Source of the DNA: Gammaproteobacteria bacterium
GTDB taxonomy: Bacteria > Pseudomonadota > Gammaproteobacteria > Pseudomonadales > IMCC2047
Reading direction: 5' to 3'
DNA: 64,000 nucleotides
NCBI GenBank assembly: GCA_021773395.1
Contig: JAJFKB010000001.1
Location: forward strand, 65,955-129,954
In this document: positions 30,355-38,335 of the stretch, piece after piece
Layout of the letters: each line of letters begins with the position of its first letter
Position numbering within the stretch: position 1 is the stretch's first letter
Program-made: the position numbers and the translations under genes
Notes under the pieces: generated by a model
What the model was told of the DNA's origin: nothing
Databases searched by the model: none
What the model saw: the letters and a program-made list of their open reading frames with translations, nothing else

Positions 30355-30399
30355 ATTCGCAACAACCAAGTATGCGAATTACGCAGCAATTATGCGAAT
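30355..30399. promoter_or_regulatory. ATTCGCA-N11-TGCGAAT inverted repeat plus a second TATGCGAAT copy in the TBDR/trpB-like divergent intergenic region
   Basis: Read directly: ATTCGCA 30355-30361, an 11-nt spacer, TGCGAAT 30373-30379. TATGCGAAT recurs at 30391-30399, 20 nt later. Confidence 0.3.
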
Positions 30400-33373: not shown

Positions 33374-34495
33374 TTACCTTTCTGATAACGCAGTATCAAT
33401 TGTGCGTAATAGTGCCTCTGTTGTTTCCCAGCCGATGCATTCATCGGTTATCGAAACACCATAGTCCATTAATTCAGGAGTGATGCTCAAGGCTTGATTA
33501 CCTGGATTAATATGACTCTCCAACATTAACCCGGCTATCGCTTTTTCCCCCTGACTAAATTGAATTAACAGATTCTCTACTACCTTTGATTGATTACTCG
33601 CATTTTTACCGCTGTTAGCATGACTGCAGTCAACGACAATCCTGGCTTCTATGCTGGCCTGCGCGAGCATCTTTTTGCAATGCTCGATCGAGTCGGGATC
33701 GTAGTTAGAACCTGACTTACCACCACGCAAGATAATATGGCTACTCTGATTCCCGACAGTCGTTATCGCACTCATACGCCCGTGCCTATCAATCCCAGCA
33801 AAACAGTGTTCCGAGCGCACCGCAAGCAGTCCATTGACTGCAGCTTCAATACAGCCGTTGGTCGCATTTTTAATGCCAACTGGTGATGACAATCCACTGG
33901 CAAACTGACGGTGCAACTGCGACTCCGCGGTGCGCGCACCAATTGCCGTCCAACTAACCAAATCCTGATAATAATGAGCCAGATTGGGCTCCAGGGCTTC
34001 TGTAGCGACCGGCACTCCCAAGGCCGTAATGTCGAGTAATATCCGTCTAACTAACGCGATGCCCGCAGCAATATCGCAACTGCCATCCAGATTAGGATCG
34101 TTAATCAAGCCCTTCCAGCCGAGTGCCGTACGTGGCTTTTCAAAATAGCAACGCATCACTAAACACAGCTGACCAGAAAGCTCTAACGATAATTTTCTAA
34201 GTCGGCGCGCATAATCCAGAGCCGACTCATAATCATGAATTGAGCAGGGGCCAACAATGACAAGTAGTCGCTGGTCCTTTCCTGCTAAAATCGCCTTGAT
34301 ATCCTTTCTTGCAGTTGCCACACATTTTGCACTAACCGCTGTGGCGGGCAACTTATCCAACAACTCGGCAGGTGACGCCAGCGACTGCACATTTTGCTCT
34401 CGTACCTCGCAATCATTCAATAACAAGGCCGTATCAAACTGCGCCCGCTGAAGCACTTCCTTTTCTGACCTGCTGTCCATACAAATTTCACTCAT
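33374..34495 (-). CDS. class I 3-deoxy-7-phosphoheptulonate (DAHP) synthase
   Basis: 373 aa. LLVIVGPCSIHD, KPRT..GWKGL, GARTAESQ.HR and DCSHANS motifs of AroF/G/H-type enzymes. The isozyme (feedback specificity) cannot be told from sequence by eye. Confidence 0.9.
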   Translation of the reverse strand: MSEICMDSRSEKEVLQRAQFDTALLLNDCEVREQNVQSLASPAELLDKLPATAVSAKCVATARKDIKAILAGKDQRLLVIVGPCSIHDYESALDYARRLRKLSLELSGQLCLVMRCYFEKPRTALGWKGLINDPNLDGSCDIAAGIALVRRILLDITALGVPVATEALEPNLAHYYQDLVSWTAIGARTAESQLHRQFASGLSSPVGIKNATNGCIEAAVNGLLAVRSEHCFAGIDRHGRMSAITTVGNQSSHIILRGGKSGSNYDPDSIEHCKKMLAQASIEARIVVDCSHANSGKNASNQSKVVENLLIQFSQGEKAIAGLMLESHINPGNQALSITPELMDYGVSITDECIGWETTEALLRTIDTALSER

Positions 34496-34531
34496 AAAAA
34501 AACCCTCGGATTGCGATCTGCCCTCCGAGGG
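34496..34531 (-). terminator. intrinsic-terminator-like hairpin plus U7 abutting the DAHP synthase start codon (candidate attenuator)
   Basis: The minus strand reads CCCTCGGA-GGGCAGATCGCAA-TCCGAGGG-TTTTTTT-ATG. The only Shine-Dalgarno-like sequence (GAGGG) lies inside the 3' arm. Confidence 0.55.
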
Positions 34532-34593
34532 TTTCTATTCCTAGGTAAGGCAGCTTGTTTAAACTGCCTTACTTGTATAGGGATTAGGCGAGC

Positions 34594-34692
34594 TTAAACG
34601 TGGTCTCCAAAATAAAAACCAAAAAAGCTACGCCACTGAACGCAAAATTCCAGTGCCGATGCTGCCTGTTGATTTACCCTATTTGTATTCAT
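34594..34692 (-). CDS. candidate aromatic-rich leader peptide (32 aa)
   Basis: Manual translation gives MNTNRVNQQAASALEFCVQWRSFFGFYFGDHV*. Seven aromatic residues, with FFGFYF in six consecutive codons. Followed by two hairpins (34546-34571 and 34503-34531). Below the ORF-track size cutoff. Confidence 0.5.
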   Translation of the reverse strand: MNTNRVNQQAASALEFCVQWRSFFGFYFGDHV

Positions 34693-34768
34693 GGTTTGCT
34701 ATCTTATTGATTTTCACGAAAAACACAAGTTCTTTCTAGGGAACCTATAAGAACTTAAGTTCGACCAC

Positions 34769-35827
34769 TTAAATCACACCTCTTTTAATCTGATCCATTT
34801 CGATAGACTCAAATAACGCCTGAAAATTACCTTCACCGAAGCCTTCGTTACCCTTACGCTGAATAAACTCGAAGAAGATCGGGCCAATAACATTGGTCGA
34901 GAAAATCTGCAGCAATAATCCCTGCCCTTCTGTCGGAGCTCCATCAATCAATATCCTTCGCGTACGCATCGCCTCAACATCCTCTCCATGCCCAGGTAAC
35001 CGTTTATCGATCAGCTCGTAGTAGGTTTCGGGAGTTTCCTGCATCACAACACCACTGGCCTTGAGCACATCCACTGTTTTATAAAGATCATCTGTGCCTA
35101 GCGCTATATGCTGAATACCCTCTCCGTTGTATTCGTTCAGGTACTCAACGATCTGCGATTTATCATCTCTAGACTCGTTAATTGGAATGCGGATTTTACC
35201 GCATGGACTCGTCATGGCACGACTAACCAGCCCCGTGCGCTGCCCTTCGATATCGAAATAACGGATTTCTCGGAAATTAAATATATGCTCATAGAACCCG
35301 GACCACTTATCCATATTGCCACGCCTAACATTATGTGTCAGATGGTCTATATAGGTCAGTCCGGCATCACAGGGTGAACTTATTTCATCATATGCTAGTG
35401 GCTCAAAATCGATATCATAGATAGTGCTCTCGGCATAGCGATCAACCAGATACAGGCGGCTTCCTCCGATACCCTCAATGGCGGGAATATTTAATTCCAT
35501 CGGCCCAATATTGCTTTCCACTGGAGTGGCACCAAGCTCAATGGCCCGAGCATAGGCCTTCGCAGCATCTTTAACCCTAAATGCCATGGCACAGGCCGAA
35601 GGACCATGCTTTCGCGCAAAATCCTGGGCGAACGAGTTGGTTTCCGCATTGATAATAAAATTTATATCACCCTGCTTATGCAGGGTTACATTTTTTGAAC
35701 GATGCCTGGCGACCGCAGGAAACCCCATCTTGTGAAAAAGCTCGCGCAGAAGATCTGGATCGGGCGCTGTATACTCTACAAATTCAAAACCATCTGTCCC
35801 TGCCGGGTTTTCAAATAAATCATTCAT
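34769..35827 (-). CDS. hppD: 4-hydroxyphenylpyruvate dioxygenase
   Basis: 352 aa. [10 protein letters not shown], two VOC domains, GIQHIAL, LLLQIFS and FFEFIQRKG are typical HppD. Confidence 0.92.
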
Positions 35828-36035
35828 TTTAATAGGCTCTTGTTGAAATTTATTTTATAACTAAAATAATACGCCTGAATAAATGAGTTATTTTTCCTTA
35901 TACGAATGAAAACAATAAATATTCGGAATGAAAACCCGAATAGTATAATAATATGGGTAAATTTCCCGTTTTTACACTCTTGACCGGCACACCAGCCGCT
36001 CAAGAATGCGTATCAAACTCAATTAATGGGCGACA

Positions 36036-36503
36036 TCAAGGCGGTGTAAGTCTGGTACTGTACTTAACTTCACGCAATGTAAAACTGGAAGACGCCGAGT
36101 CAACCAGCGAATGATTCAGCACCTGCCGCGTTAACAGTCTTTCAAAAGCGGCCACATCTTCTACCACTATTTTTAGAATATAGTCATGGCTTCCCGAGAC
36201 CGCATAACACTCAGTGATCTCCGAAAGTGAGGCAACAAACCCTTCAAACTCCAATCGCGTTTCATCACTGTGATGACTGAGCTTAACATTACAGATCACA
36301 CACACATCCAGACCAATCGCATGACGATCTACCAGCGCAACGCGAGCACTAATAACACCCTTGCTTTCTAAACTCTGAATACGTCGCCACACAGAGGTTG
36401 GAGAACTTCCAATACGGTCAGCTATTTCCTGGTGCGTAAGACGTGCATCTTTCTGCATCAATTCAAGTATGTTTCGATCAATTCGATCCAGCTTAGCGCT
36501 CAT
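36036..36503 (-). CDS. Lrp/AsnC-family transcriptional regulator
   Basis: 155 aa. LDRIDRNILELMQKDARLTHQEIADRIGSSPTSVWRRIQSLE HTH plus a RAM/ACT-like C-terminal domain. Confidence 0.85.
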   Translation of the reverse strand: MSAKLDRIDRNILELMQKDARLTHQEIADRIGSSPTSVWRRIQSLESKGVISARVALVDRHAIGLDVCVICNVKLSHHSDETRLEFEGFVASLSEITECYAVSGSHDYILKIVVEDVAAFERLLTRQVLNHSLVDSASSSFTLREVKYSTRLTPP

Positions 36504-36574
36504 CGCAGCGACCCTGTGTAGTTAGGTTGTGTGTAGTTAGGTTAATAGTTAAAGTTGACCGTTAAGGTTAATAA

Positions 36575-37036
36575 TTAGATCTTTGTAATGCTAGTAACAC
36601 GCCTATCCAGATGATTCAGCAGATTGTAAAGTGCCTCCTGCTGTTGTCCGTCGAGCTCCATTAACAGAGCTTTTTCCCACTCCAGAGCTTTTTTGGCAAT
36701 TTCTTTATAGAGCTTGACTCCCTGATCATTTAACGCAAGCCGTATAGCCCGGCTATCGCTGTCATCCTTTTGTCTTACCAGGCAGCCCTTTTTGTCCAGC
36801 GCGCTAACCGCTCGCGAAACCTTAACCTTGTCCATATGGGTCTGTAACCCTATTTCCTTAGCCAATAACTCCGGGTATTCAGCGAGCGTTGCCAGAATAC
36901 GCCATTCCGCCACACTGATACCAAATTGGTCTGAATAAATTCGTGACAGCGCCAGGCTGACACGTTCTGCCAGATTATTCAGCCGGTAAGGGATAAAATT
37001 CTTTAACTTAACTTTCGGACTACAATCGTTACCCAC
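36575..37036 (-). CDS. MarR-family transcriptional regulator (likely homogentisate-pathway repressor)
   Basis: The ORF track extends to a TTG at 37117. A GTG at 37036, preceded by GGAAAG, gives a typical 153-aa MarR (ISVAEWRILATL..., VSRAVSALDKKG winged helix). Divergent from hmgA. Confidence 0.78.
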   Translation of the reverse strand: MGNDCSPKVKLKNFIPYRLNNLAERVSLALSRIYSDQFGISVAEWRILATLAEYPELLAKEIGLQTHMDKVKVSRAVSALDKKGCLVRQKDDSDSRAIRLALNDQGVKLYKEIAKKALEWEKALLMELDGQQQEALYNLLNHLDRRVTSITKI

Positions 37037-37122
37037 TGTTCTTTCCAAATAGAAGTATTTAATTTTCGCTCTGCTAAACGCTTGCCAGAGTTTAAGCGCA
37101 AAACAAAGCGGTTGCAAAAGAG

Positions 37123-37145
37123 ACTAGTTTACATTAAACTAGTTT
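37123..37145. promoter_or_regulatory. two ACTAGTTT/AAACTAGTTT palindromic sites between the MarR gene and hmgA (candidate operator)
   Basis: ACTAGTTT at 37123-37130 and the perfect 10-bp palindrome AAACTAGTTT at 37136-37145. Cores are 15 bp apart, about 50 nt upstream of the hmgA ATG. Confidence 0.4.
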
Positions 37146-37192
37146 CATATGTAACTATATGCAACACTTGATTTATTAACAGGACATGCATC

Positions 37193-38335
37193 ATGAGCGC
37201 CAGAAAGTGGGTAGATTTTCCAATTCAGGAAGGTACAACTTCGCGCCAGGCCCATTGCGATTTTCCAGAGGGCACCTATGAACGCGAGCTGGGCCGAGAA
37301 GGTTTCTTTGGTCCGGCATCCCATATGCACCACCAAAATCCACCCACCGGCTGGATCGACTGGGAAGGGCCGCTGCAACCACGCGCATTCGACTTCAATC
37401 AAATAACGGCTGTAGATGCTTCTCCATTAAATGCACCAATTACGCTGGAAAACAATAATCTTGCAGTAAGGCTATGGAAAAGTAATAGCAATATGTCACA
37501 TTTGGTGCGAAACAGTGATGGTGATGACTTGCTGTTCATCCATTACGGCAAAGGCGAGCTGTATTGCGATTATGGTCACCTGAGTTTTCGTGATGGCGAC
37601 TATATAATGATCCCACGCGGCACCGCCTGGCGGGTCGAGGTAGATGAACCAATCACCGTGCTCATGATGGAGAACAAAGACGGAGCCTATACCATGCCGG
37701 ACCGCGGTATTTTAGGCCCAAATGCGATCTATGATCCTGCGATACTGGATTATCCTAGAATAGATGAGGCCTTTAAAGCCCAGCAGGGTAACGACACCTG
37801 GCAGGTACACATCAAGCGACTGGATCAGGTCAGTAAAGTCACCTTTCCTTTTAATCCATTGGATGCGGTCGGCTGGCATGGTAACAATACTGTGGTACGC
37901 CTGAACTGGCGAGATATCAGGCCTTTGATGAGTCACAGGTACCATTTGCCTCCTTCCGCGCACAGTACTTTTGTAGGTAATGGCTTTATCATTTGTACCT
38001 TTTGCCCCAGACCGATTGAATCCGACCCCGGGGCATTAAAAGTACCCTTCTTTCATAACAACGACGATTATGACGAAGTACTCTTCTACCATCGTGGCAA
38101 CTTTTTCAGCCGTGACAATATTGAAGAGGGTATGGTCACCTTCCACCCCTGCGGGTTCGCACATGGCCCTCACCCGAAGGCGCTAAAAAAGGCACTGACC
38201 AATCCGAATAAAGAAACCGATGAGGTTGCGGTAATGATCGATACACGCCACTCGCTTCGGGTAACGGAAGTTGCTGAGAGTACCGAAAACCTGGAATACA
38301 TTAACTCCTGGAAATCACCTGGAAAGGATTTATAA
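37193..38335 (+). CDS. hmgA: homogentisate 1,2-dioxygenase (short, about 380-aa form)
   Basis: 380 aa cupin-type protein (DGDDLLFIHYGKGELYCDYGHLSFRDGDYIMIPRG). Followed by FAH and maleylacetoacetate isomerase genes. Confidence 0.85.
   Translation: MSARKWVDFPIQEGTTSRQAHCDFPEGTYERELGREGFFGPASHMHHQNPPTGWIDWEGPLQPRAFDFNQITAVDASPLNAPITLENNNLAVRLWKSNSNMSHLVRNSDGDDLLFIHYGKGELYCDYGHLSFRDGDYIMIPRGTAWRVEVDEPITVLMMENKDGAYTMPDRGILGPNAIYDPAILDYPRIDEAFKAQQGNDTWQVHIKRLDQVSKVTFPFNPLDAVGWHGNNTVVRLNWRDIRPLMSHRYHLPPSAHSTFVGNGFIICTFCPRPIESDPGALKVPFFHNNDDYDEVLFYHRGNFFSRDNIEEGMVTFHPCGFAHGPHPKALKKALTNPNKETDEVAVMIDTRHSLRVTEVAESTENLEYINSWKSPGKDL

Follow-up and report, generated by a model that had tools for sequence, protein, structure and literature searches.

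We analysed a stretch of 64,000 nucleotides (nt) from an uncultured gammaproteobacterium of the Pseudomonadales lineage IMCC2047 (assembly GCA_021773395.1, contig JAJFKB010000001.1, positions 65,955 to 129,954), hereafter called the window, and investigated the leader region of its gene for 3-deoxy-D-arabino-heptulosonate 7-phosphate (DAHP) synthase. The gene (33374..34495, minus strand) encodes a type I-alpha enzyme of 373 amino acids that profile matches place in the AroF/G/H family (NCBIfam NF009395, 476.9 bits; TIGR00034, 443.8 bits). Its best solved relative is the tyrosine-sensitive AroF of E. coli (6agm, 369 bits), and AroG scored 340 bits. Upstream of it, on the minus strand like all leader features described below, the listing of open reading frames (ORFs) contains a leader ORF of 32 codons plus stop (34594..34692) with the product MNTNRVNQQAASALEFCVQWRSFFGFYFGDHV, an ATG at 34692 and the stop codon TAA at 34596-34594. 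Positions within the leader are counted from this ATG (position 1), hence the window coordinate equals 34693 minus the position. The ORF encodes one tryptophan, five phenylalanines and one tyrosine, and seven of the 11 residues of the stretch FQWRSFFGFYF are aromatic; the putative regulatory codons extend from that for W (34635-34633) to the end of FFGFYF (34626-34609). All five Phe codons are TTT, which is uninformative since TTT already makes up 73% of the Phe codons in the long ORFs of the window. An earlier reading of the sequence alone (the original prediction) had described this ORF with its W, its FFGFYF run and its TTT codons, and on the minus strand we found it as described.

Two hairpins follow the leader ORF. 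The first, TAAGGCAG-N10-CTGCCTTA at 34571-34546, extends to a 12-base pair (bp) stem from G34572 to C34545 with a free energy (dG) of -17.1. The second, a predicted intrinsic terminator with the structure CCCTCGGA-N13-TCCGAGGG-T7 (34531-34496), forms with its flanking AAA/UUU an 11-bp stem (34534-34496; positions 159-169 with 183-193) of dG -22.5. The T7 tract ends at 34496, directly before the DAHP synthase ATG at 34495 (position 198). The sole motif resembling a Shine-Dalgarno (SD) sequence, GAGGG (34507-34503; 186-190), lies inside the 3' arm of the terminator, 7 nt before this ATG, and the U7 tract is exactly the spacer between SD and AUG. Both hairpins, the U-tract that ends at the start codon and the single SD-like motif had been recognized in the original prediction and are present at those places. 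The stretch GGGTTTTTTTATG is invariant in all ten homologous sequences described below; together with the SD it leaves no room for a separate promoter, therefore expression of DAHP synthase must pass through the terminator.

A putative sigma-70 promoter of the leader-DAHP synthase transcript (34701..34728) was assigned from its conservation in eight loci. In the window it consists of a -35 element TTGTGT (34728-34723), a 16-nt spacer and a -10 element TAAGAT (34706-34701). The pattern CTTGC.T-N16-TAAGAT is common to all eight loci that reach that far (with TAATAT in L087), and the sequence of the spacer is variable. From the -10 element to the leader ATG there are 7 nt in these loci and 8 nt in the window; a promoter ending this close implies a leaderless or near-leaderless transcript, and the leader ORF is probably of this kind.

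Conservation of the leader element

Among one genome per GTDB species, close relatives of the DAHP synthase were found in two metagenome-assembled genomes (MAGs), with 95% and 72% identity, others being about 50% identical. A collection of 5.8 billion proteins contained only eight clusters with at least 57% identity, and contigs of all eight carry the same leader element directly upstream of the DAHP synthase ATG. The near orthologues with the element have protein identities of 95%, 72% and 57-62%. The leader element, whose peptide the original prediction had proposed to examine for conservation, thus precedes every near orthologue that was found. We compared ten distinct element sequences: those of the window, L001, L002, L081, L082, L083, L089, L084, L087 and L086, the last being cut at its 5' end. 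Nucleotide identity of the leader to that of the window ranges from 0.92 (L002) down to 0.73 (L087), whereas the adjacent DAHP synthase gene has identities of 0.68 to 0.59, with saturated third codon positions (0.36-0.41). Sequences from three further metagenome runs (X4-X6) aligned at 80% identity or more only over 34471-34695. The runs containing the locus are DNA runs; a search for RNA-seq runs yielded none for the window and, for L002, only runs of unspecified type that are evidently DNA.

The order of genes around the element, hmgA / MarR, Lrp, hppD, leader-DAHP synthase / rhlB, trpB, is shared by relatives with as little as 57% identity. In the loci L084/L085, hppD, the upstream same-strand gene encoding 4-hydroxyphenylpyruvate dioxygenase (34769-35827 in the window), is missing and the element still precedes DAHP synthase; therefore the element belongs to and travels with the DAHP synthase gene. 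An nhmmer search with the 10-sequence alignment against the window and 209 loci yielded no further copies in the window or before other genes, leaving a single window copy. A degenerate DNA pattern derived from the peptide motif gave 120 matches in a scan of metagenome contigs; we rejected these matches as chance, all of them lacking hairpin and terminator, and one (L099) lying inside an integrase gene.

The leader frame is open from ATG to stop in nine of the nine full-length homologues, and the other two frames are full of stop codons. The peptides of the homologues are MNISRVNQQAASALEFSVQWRSFFGFYFGDHV, MNRNWVNQQAAVTLEASFQWRSFFGFYFGNHV, MMNQYTVNQQLVVALESGFQWRSFFGFYFGDLV, MNQYRIDQPLIVPLESGFQWRSFFGFYFGDLV, MKQTLVNQQADTPLNIIFQWRSFFGFYFFGDHV, MNQTLVNQQAATPLNVIFQWRSFFGFYFFGDHV, MKQINAYNQVQTPLNAGFQWRGFFGFWKPV and MMMIANAKHNTILALTAGFQWRAFFGFFMETD. 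Across the leaders the run QWR[SGA]FFGF[YWF] is invariant and the N-terminal half drifts freely. The residue after FFGF is aromatic in every leader, be it Y, W or F, as would be expected for regulatory codons of a common-pathway enzyme. An insertion of TTT (3 nt) in the leaders of L083/L089 preserves the frame, and the Arg codon differs synonymously among the homologues (CGT/CGC/CGG). The tail that follows FFGF is 4 to 7 codons long; despite this variation, the stop codon of every homologue lies inside the same pairing segment (segment 2, see below). The ORF thus behaves as a translated leader, translation being inferred from the conservation of its frame. A constraint at another level is seen in the tail, where GGAGAC, the 3' arm of a small hairpin (window 34602-34608), is kept as nucleotides in L087/L086 in another frame (M-E-T versus G-D), a sign of constraint on the RNA and not on the peptide.

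Predicted alternative pairing of the leader RNA

Folding of the 216-nt leader region gave a minimum free energy (MFE) of -76.2 kcal/mol compared to -50.3 ± 4.5 kcal/mol for 200 dinucleotide shuffles (z = -5.81), none of which folded as well. This score and the conservation in all near orthologous loci establish the element as real and not a product of chance. The fold test had been suggested in the original prediction together with a search for alternatives between terminator and antiterminator, and such alternatives were found as well. The leader contains six segments with competing partners, preceded by a hairpin of its own within the ORF. Over the ten sequences the six helices have 89-97% of cells paired and most pairs never vary; such invariance is expected of segments that have to match two partners each and that in part also encode protein.

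The hairpin within the ORF, P1 (CACTGGAA...TTCAGTG; 34634..34655, positions 38-59), has a dG of -8 to -12 in the nine full-length homologues and 93.7% of cells paired, its sequence changes being one-sided only (AU/GU, CG/UG). As a speculation, P1 ahead of the U-run may be a pause site of RNA polymerase that synchronizes ribosome and polymerase. Segment 1, GGCGTAGCTT (34625..34634; 59-68), covers the W-R-S-F codons and pairs with segment 2, GTTTAAGCTCGCCT (34586..34599; 94-107), which holds the stop codon TAA (97-99) and has segment 1 or segment 3 as partner. Helix 1:2 (59-68 with 98-106) encloses the small hairpin GGTTTTT-loop-GGAGACC, formed by the G-F-Y-F-G-D codons (34602..34620; 73-79 with 85-91) and paired in 97% of cells. 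It is the local MFE structure of positions 57-107 in all ten sequences (-12.5 to -21.8 kcal/mol), with 89% of cells paired and no significant covariation.

Segment 3, GTAAGGCAGTTTAAAC (34557..34572; 121-136), is the 5' arm of the first hairpin and pairs with segment 2 or 4. Helix 2:3 (94-107 with 124-136) comprises 13 pairs with 94.6% of cells paired and a dG of -10 to -18. Two of its pairs are compensatory, G-C to A-U in L086 and U-A to C-G in L084, besides four one-sided changes, and in 500 column shuffles its covariation score was reached six to eight times. Segments 2 and 3 are separated by 12-25 nt of variable sequence, as befits the loop of this helix. Segment 4, CTGCCTTACCTAGG (34540..34553; 140-153), forms the 3' arm of the first hairpin and has segment 3 or 5 as partner. 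Helix 3:4 (121-129 with 140-148), the putative anti-antiterminator, is invariant in the ten sequences (dG -12.6 to -17). Segment 5, AAACCCTCGGAGGGCAG (34518..34534; 159-175), extends over the 5' arm of the terminator into the beginning of its loop; its partner is either segment 4 or segment 6, TCCGAGGG (34496..34510), in which the terminator 3' arm (183-193) merges into the U7 tract (34502-34496; 191-197). The terminator helix 5:6 is again invariant in ten of ten sequences, with a dG across the homologues of -18 to -23.5.

The predicted antiterminator, helix 4:5, consists of 12 bp (140-146 with 169-175, 148-149 with 167-168 and 151-153 with 163-165), was obtained for all ten sequences with a dG of -13 to -21 and 96.7% of cells paired, and takes up six of the 11 nt that make up the 5' arm of the terminator. 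Its core is the alternative pairing CTGCCTT/GGGCAG of the original prediction, which exists as part of this longer conserved helix: the short 7-bp pairing found by hand search overlaps 3 bp of the terminator, and folding of the RNA before segment 6 exists yields the 12-bp version. In the comparison for covariation, likewise proposed earlier, the two compensatory pairs of helix 2:3 stood out and the other main helices gave no significant signal. A long-range pairing, ATAGGG/CCCTAT in the window and ATTGGG/CCCAAT in L002, seemed compensatory and was rejected because L001 disrupts it and the other clades lack it. The motif AGGCAG occurs three times in the leader, at positions 26-31, 124-129 and 170-175 (34662-34667, 34564-34569 and 34518-34523), and each copy is complementary to segment 4 (CUGCCU).

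We simulated the ribosome by masking nucleotides in MFE folds of the ten sequences. Stalling at the aromatic codons was represented by leaving segment 2 unmasked and ending the RNA before segment 6, and under these conditions all ten sequences had 2:3 + 4:5 as their MFE structure. When the ribosome was placed on the stop codon, masking segment 2, helix 3:4 formed and the terminator 5' arm was free in nine of ten sequences; with the RNA out only to segment 4, helix 3:4 formed in every one of them. All homologues are compatible with both sets of helices. A purely thermodynamic switch was ruled out, as full-length constrained MFE folds always keep the terminator.

Proposed attenuation and competing explanations

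Taken together, these data make it likely that the element acts as a ribosome-mediated attenuator of transcription and, coupled to this, sequesters the SD. It would control the type I-alpha DAHP synthase by sensing charged aromatic tRNAs, mainly tRNA-Phe and in addition those for Trp and Tyr. Three of the features that characterize a leader-peptide attenuator are found: a short ORF rich in codons for the end products stands upstream of a biosynthetic gene, an intrinsic terminator lies between the leader ORF and the structural gene, and in silico an antiterminator exclusive of the terminator forms depending on the position of the ribosome. Where transcription starts, that the leader is translated, and that ribosomes stall and transcription terminates in vivo are inferences. 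In the proposed mechanism, transcription from the conserved promoter would begin at the leader AUG or a few nt away from it, and the 32-codon leader would be translated while RNA polymerase moves on. Two mutually exclusive sets of helices would then compete, 1:2 + 3:4 + 5:6 for the OFF state and 2:3 + 4:5 for the ON state. With ample aromatic tRNAs the ribosome would reach the stop codon and mask segment 2, so that 3:4 and then the 5:6 terminator could form and the transcript would end at the U-tract, one base before the DAHP synthase AUG. Upon shortage, a ribosome stalled at W-R-S-F-F-G-F-Y-F (58-84) would mask segment 1 and free segment 2, allowing 2:3 + 4:5; the polymerase would read through, and the SD GAGGG in the unpaired segment 6 would be free for translation of DAHP synthase. 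If the leader were not translated at all, 1:2 + 3:4 + 5:6 would form and transcription would terminate.

Several observations weigh against the attenuator reading. The leader promoter matches the consensus weakly (7/12) and was not reported by a generic promoter scan; since it falls below the threshold of such a scan, conservation is the basis of its assignment. There is no SD sequence before the leader ATG, and translation of the leader depends on the presumed leaderless start. The first AGGCAG copy (26-31), conserved in five of nine sequences, has no role in the switch model and pairs with segment 4 in the MFE structure of L001. Nested MFE folds of the full transcript always contain the terminator, therefore antitermination would have to be kinetic, as in classical attenuators. 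Moreover, 5.4% of dinucleotide shuffles of positions 94-158, with segment 5 fixed, also switch on a stall; the switch of a single sequence is thus modest evidence, and it is its preservation in all homologues that carries weight. Finally, support from covariation amounts to two pairs in helix 2:3 among ten related sequences, with none significant in 1:2, 3:4, 4:5 and 5:6.

In a further reading, the invariant Q-W-R-x-F-F-G-F nascent chain of the leaderless mini-ORF would itself promote stalling and so make one DAHP synthase responsive to each of the three aromatic amino acids, and the terminated leader RNA of about 200 nt, which on this reading is abundant and is conserved at 73-92%, would also act in trans like Sinorhizobium rnTrpL/peTrpL (PMC6614838, PMC7298713). 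We regard this combination as doubtful.

It is unlikely that control is exerted on translation only, with the 5:6 hairpin masking the SD without efficient termination, translation or stalling in the leader exposing it, and the U-run being a mere spacer. The position of GAGGG in the terminator 3' arm and the exact 7-nt spacing by U7 agree with such control, and so does the thermodynamic dominance of the terminator in the full-length RNA, owing to which read-through transcripts would refold and hide the SD. Nevertheless, the 11-bp stem is rich in GC and runs into seven U, as is canonical for an intrinsic terminator, and the cascade that frees the SD also removes this terminator, so both effects are expected together. 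In addition, in the analogous leaders of other lineages the terminators are separate from the SD. Translational control is possible as a component of the attenuator. The earlier suggestion that the hairpin acts on transcription as well as on the SD is supported at the sequence level, by the conserved ORF with its aromatic run, the invariant terminator and first hairpin and the conserved antiterminator.

If antitermination depended on a protein or ligand, by way of a regulator that binds RNA or of a riboswitch-like fold, and the small ORF were incidental or a folding aid, this would account for the very high nucleotide conservation that includes loops (GTTTAAAC; GGCAG...GCAA in the terminator loop) and for a leader without SD, and candidate regulators of the Lrp and MarR types are encoded next door. 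It would leave the aromatic run and the placement of the stop codon in segment 2 unexplained, and it is at odds with an ORF kept open by frame-preserving changes and with the synonymous variation of its Arg codon. No Rfam family was matched at gathering score, and different aromatic-rich ORFs stand at the equivalent place in unrelated lineages. We therefore consider this mechanism quite improbable.

The invariance of QWRxFFGF in leaders whose gene is only 55-60% identical, and the retention of Arg despite synonymous codon changes, a hint that the amino acid itself is selected, could also point to an arrest peptide of the TnaC/SecM type that stalls through the exit tunnel, possibly on a free aromatic amino acid, and not upon tRNA scarcity. 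A conserved peptide motif is present; the downstream element, however, is an intrinsic terminator, whereas that of the TnaC type is Rho-dependent. Most of the motif codons double as arms of P1, of helix 1:2 and of the small hairpin, which explains their invariance, and the acceptance of Y, W or F after FFGF is the signature of a codon class. The peptide of a sister family differs (YWFFYR), and induction of a biosynthetic enzyme by its free end product would be illogical. An arrest peptide acting in place of tRNA scarcity is thus very unlikely. Least credible is that the element has no regulatory role and that the hairpins are the terminator region of hppD with an ORF arisen by chance, as might be thought of a region between two same-strand genes that ends in a terminator, because hppD has its own terminator-like hairpin further upstream, the element persists in L084 without hppD and is more conserved than the coding genes, and a constitutive terminator abutting the ATG would silence DAHP synthase.

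Neighbouring genes and analogous leaders

The hairpin that follows hppD, AAGTTCTT-N14-AAGAACTT (34727..34756, minus strand), is terminator-like by sequence and fold and continues into GTGTTTTT at 34726-34719. Its 3' arm overlaps the -35 element of the leader promoter, and L002 and L083 likewise have a hairpin and a T-run there, though of other sequence. The terminator-like hairpin and the promoter are thus crowded together at 34719-34756. Beyond hppD lie genes for an Lrp/AsnC-type and a MarR-type regulator and, on the opposite strand, a homogentisate-dioxygenase-like gene, so the biosynthetic DAHP synthase stands within a catabolic neighbourhood for Tyr/Phe (33374-38335) made up of the hmgA-like, MarR-type, Lrp-type and hppD genes. 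The homogentisate-dioxygenase-like gene (37193-38335, plus strand) is short, encoding 380 amino acids with 99.8 bits to TIGR01015 (hmgA) compared to a cut-off of 510.75. Its 380-amino acid counterparts in the related loci have precomputed Pfam matches to HgmA_N and, weakly, to HgmA_C; judged by these profiles, the gene product is a divergent family member, and the related loci have conserved it. DAHP synthase is flanked on its other side by rhlB and by a trpB that stands alone, without trpA next to it. No attenuator was found before trpB, whose 284-nt upstream region has neither a leader ORF nor a terminator; a direct repeat within that region, TATGCGAAT...N11...TATGCGAAT at 30371-30399 (plus strand), may be a binding site of a regulator.

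The closest functional counterpart is the aroR-aroF system of Corynebacterium glutamicum, which has been studied by experiment and in which, according to the account of Neshat et al. 2014 in PMC11802643, a leader peptide with F-Y-F precedes DAHP synthase and is de-attenuated under Phe limitation. The attenuator was also detected in PMC4046766 and PMC3890552, and leader peptides of this species can be made without a ribosome binding site (Morbach 2000, as cited in PMC4046766). Both systems have a short leader with aromatic regulatory codons before DAHP synthase and, in our proposal, ribosome-mediated transcription attenuation; the likeness is functional. In contrast to aroR-aroF, which belongs to another phylum, the window leader is longer, carries W, four to five F and Y/W/F, is built as a six-segment cascade, and has the SD placed within an arm of the terminator, the U-tract serving as spacer. 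Among Gammaproteobacteria, attenuators were predicted before aroF-tyrA in Vibrio (Merino database, as cited in PMC1173090), and for aroF of Shewanella a structured leader has been noted (PMC2659441). These resemble our case by description, as DAHP synthase genes of the same class with a predicted attenuator or structured leader, but they are predictions only and concern Tyr-sensitive aroF-tyrA operons. Attenuation of DAHP synthase, which the original prediction had set against the TyrR/TrpR repression of the enteric paradigm, is not without precedent, given aroR-aroF, as described in PMC4046766 and PMC11802643, and the Vibrio and Shewanella predictions. Together with the new analogues described below, they restrict the notion that DAHP synthase lies beyond the reach of attenuation to the enteric paradigm.

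In its architecture, the leader resembles the enteric his leader (RF00514), with which it shares the topology of A:B, C:D, E:F versus B:C, D:E, the regulatory codons in the first segment and the stop codon in the second. Unlike the his leader, its codons are aromatic and not His, another gene is regulated, and no SD precedes the leader. This topology explains why the sole Rfam match of the leader was His_leader, with 22.8 bits against a gathering score of 49; the match aligns the 3:4 hairpin and the terminator and does not make the element a member of that family. Phe_leader and Trp_leader gave no match to the leader region even at E <= 10, and nothing in the whole window matched Rfam at gathering score. 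The pheA (pheL) and pheST leaders (PMC3082878) are also gammaproteobacterial and share the run of Phe codons in a short leader and the choice between terminator and antiterminator, but they are four-segment leaders of about 15 codons with an SD, and their genes belong to a terminal branch or encode a tRNA synthetase. The original prediction had assigned the element to this pheA/pheST type: the comparative and folding data favour ribosome-mediated attenuation, whereas the architecture is six-segment and his-like, not four-segment. For the 5' end, a parallel exists in the leaderless polycysteine upstream ORFs of mycobacteria (bioRxiv 10.1101/834739), which likewise place a sensor ORF with a run of cognate codons and no SD at the 5' end of the transcript. 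These, however, are found in Actinobacteria, sense Cys and were reported as attenuators of operonic gene expression.

Aromatic leaders were also observed before DAHP synthase genes outside this family. In a sister gammaproteobacterial group (L210:2240-2503, L211:2240-2503 and L212:30-290), with DAHP synthases 54-56% identical, the leaders encode MNRTPTETYPKGFEEAGAALAVARYWFFYR, ..AAAWYWFFYR and ..AVAYWFFRR. There a promoter TTGACA-17-GAGAAT ends 8-10 nt before the ATG, followed by a terminator, an SD and a GTG start. The synteny of the window is not kept in this group, and nhmmer detected no similarity between its leaders and the window leader family. A Fibrobacteraceae MAG (L031:3800-4030) has the leader MTPEKIQKVFINHFYFYFWYFTPKKFRGV (..HFYFYFWYF..) with a strong terminator before DAHP synthase, a Desulfobacterales MAG (L015:3700-4030) the leader ..GGYYFYFGYYFFSTGPPRVR (..YYFYFGYYFF..) with a terminator, and a Bdellovibrionota MAG (L054:2320-2640) the small aromatic ORF MFSISSQNFFFFGYYFPLRG upstream of DAHP synthase. 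These ORFs in MAGs of other phyla are probably independent aromatic attenuators.

Judged from its sequence relationships, the element is a lineage-specific, unannotated family within a known kind of regulator and represents no new principle. Its design is compact, with a putative promoter right next to a probably leaderless sensor ORF, five helices that exclude one another, a terminator 3' arm that is also the SD and a U-tract that is also the spacer; it could be of interest for studies of attenuation kinetics and for the construction of amino-acid biosensors. The element adds a cis-regulatory RNA family absent from Rfam to the few cases of attenuation at the entry enzyme of the shikimate pathway, as opposed to control by repressors of the TyrR/TrpR type. 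Viewed alongside the aromatic leaders of unrelated sequence in three other lineages, the element suggests that control of this enzyme by leader peptides is common in uncultured bacteria and under-annotated.

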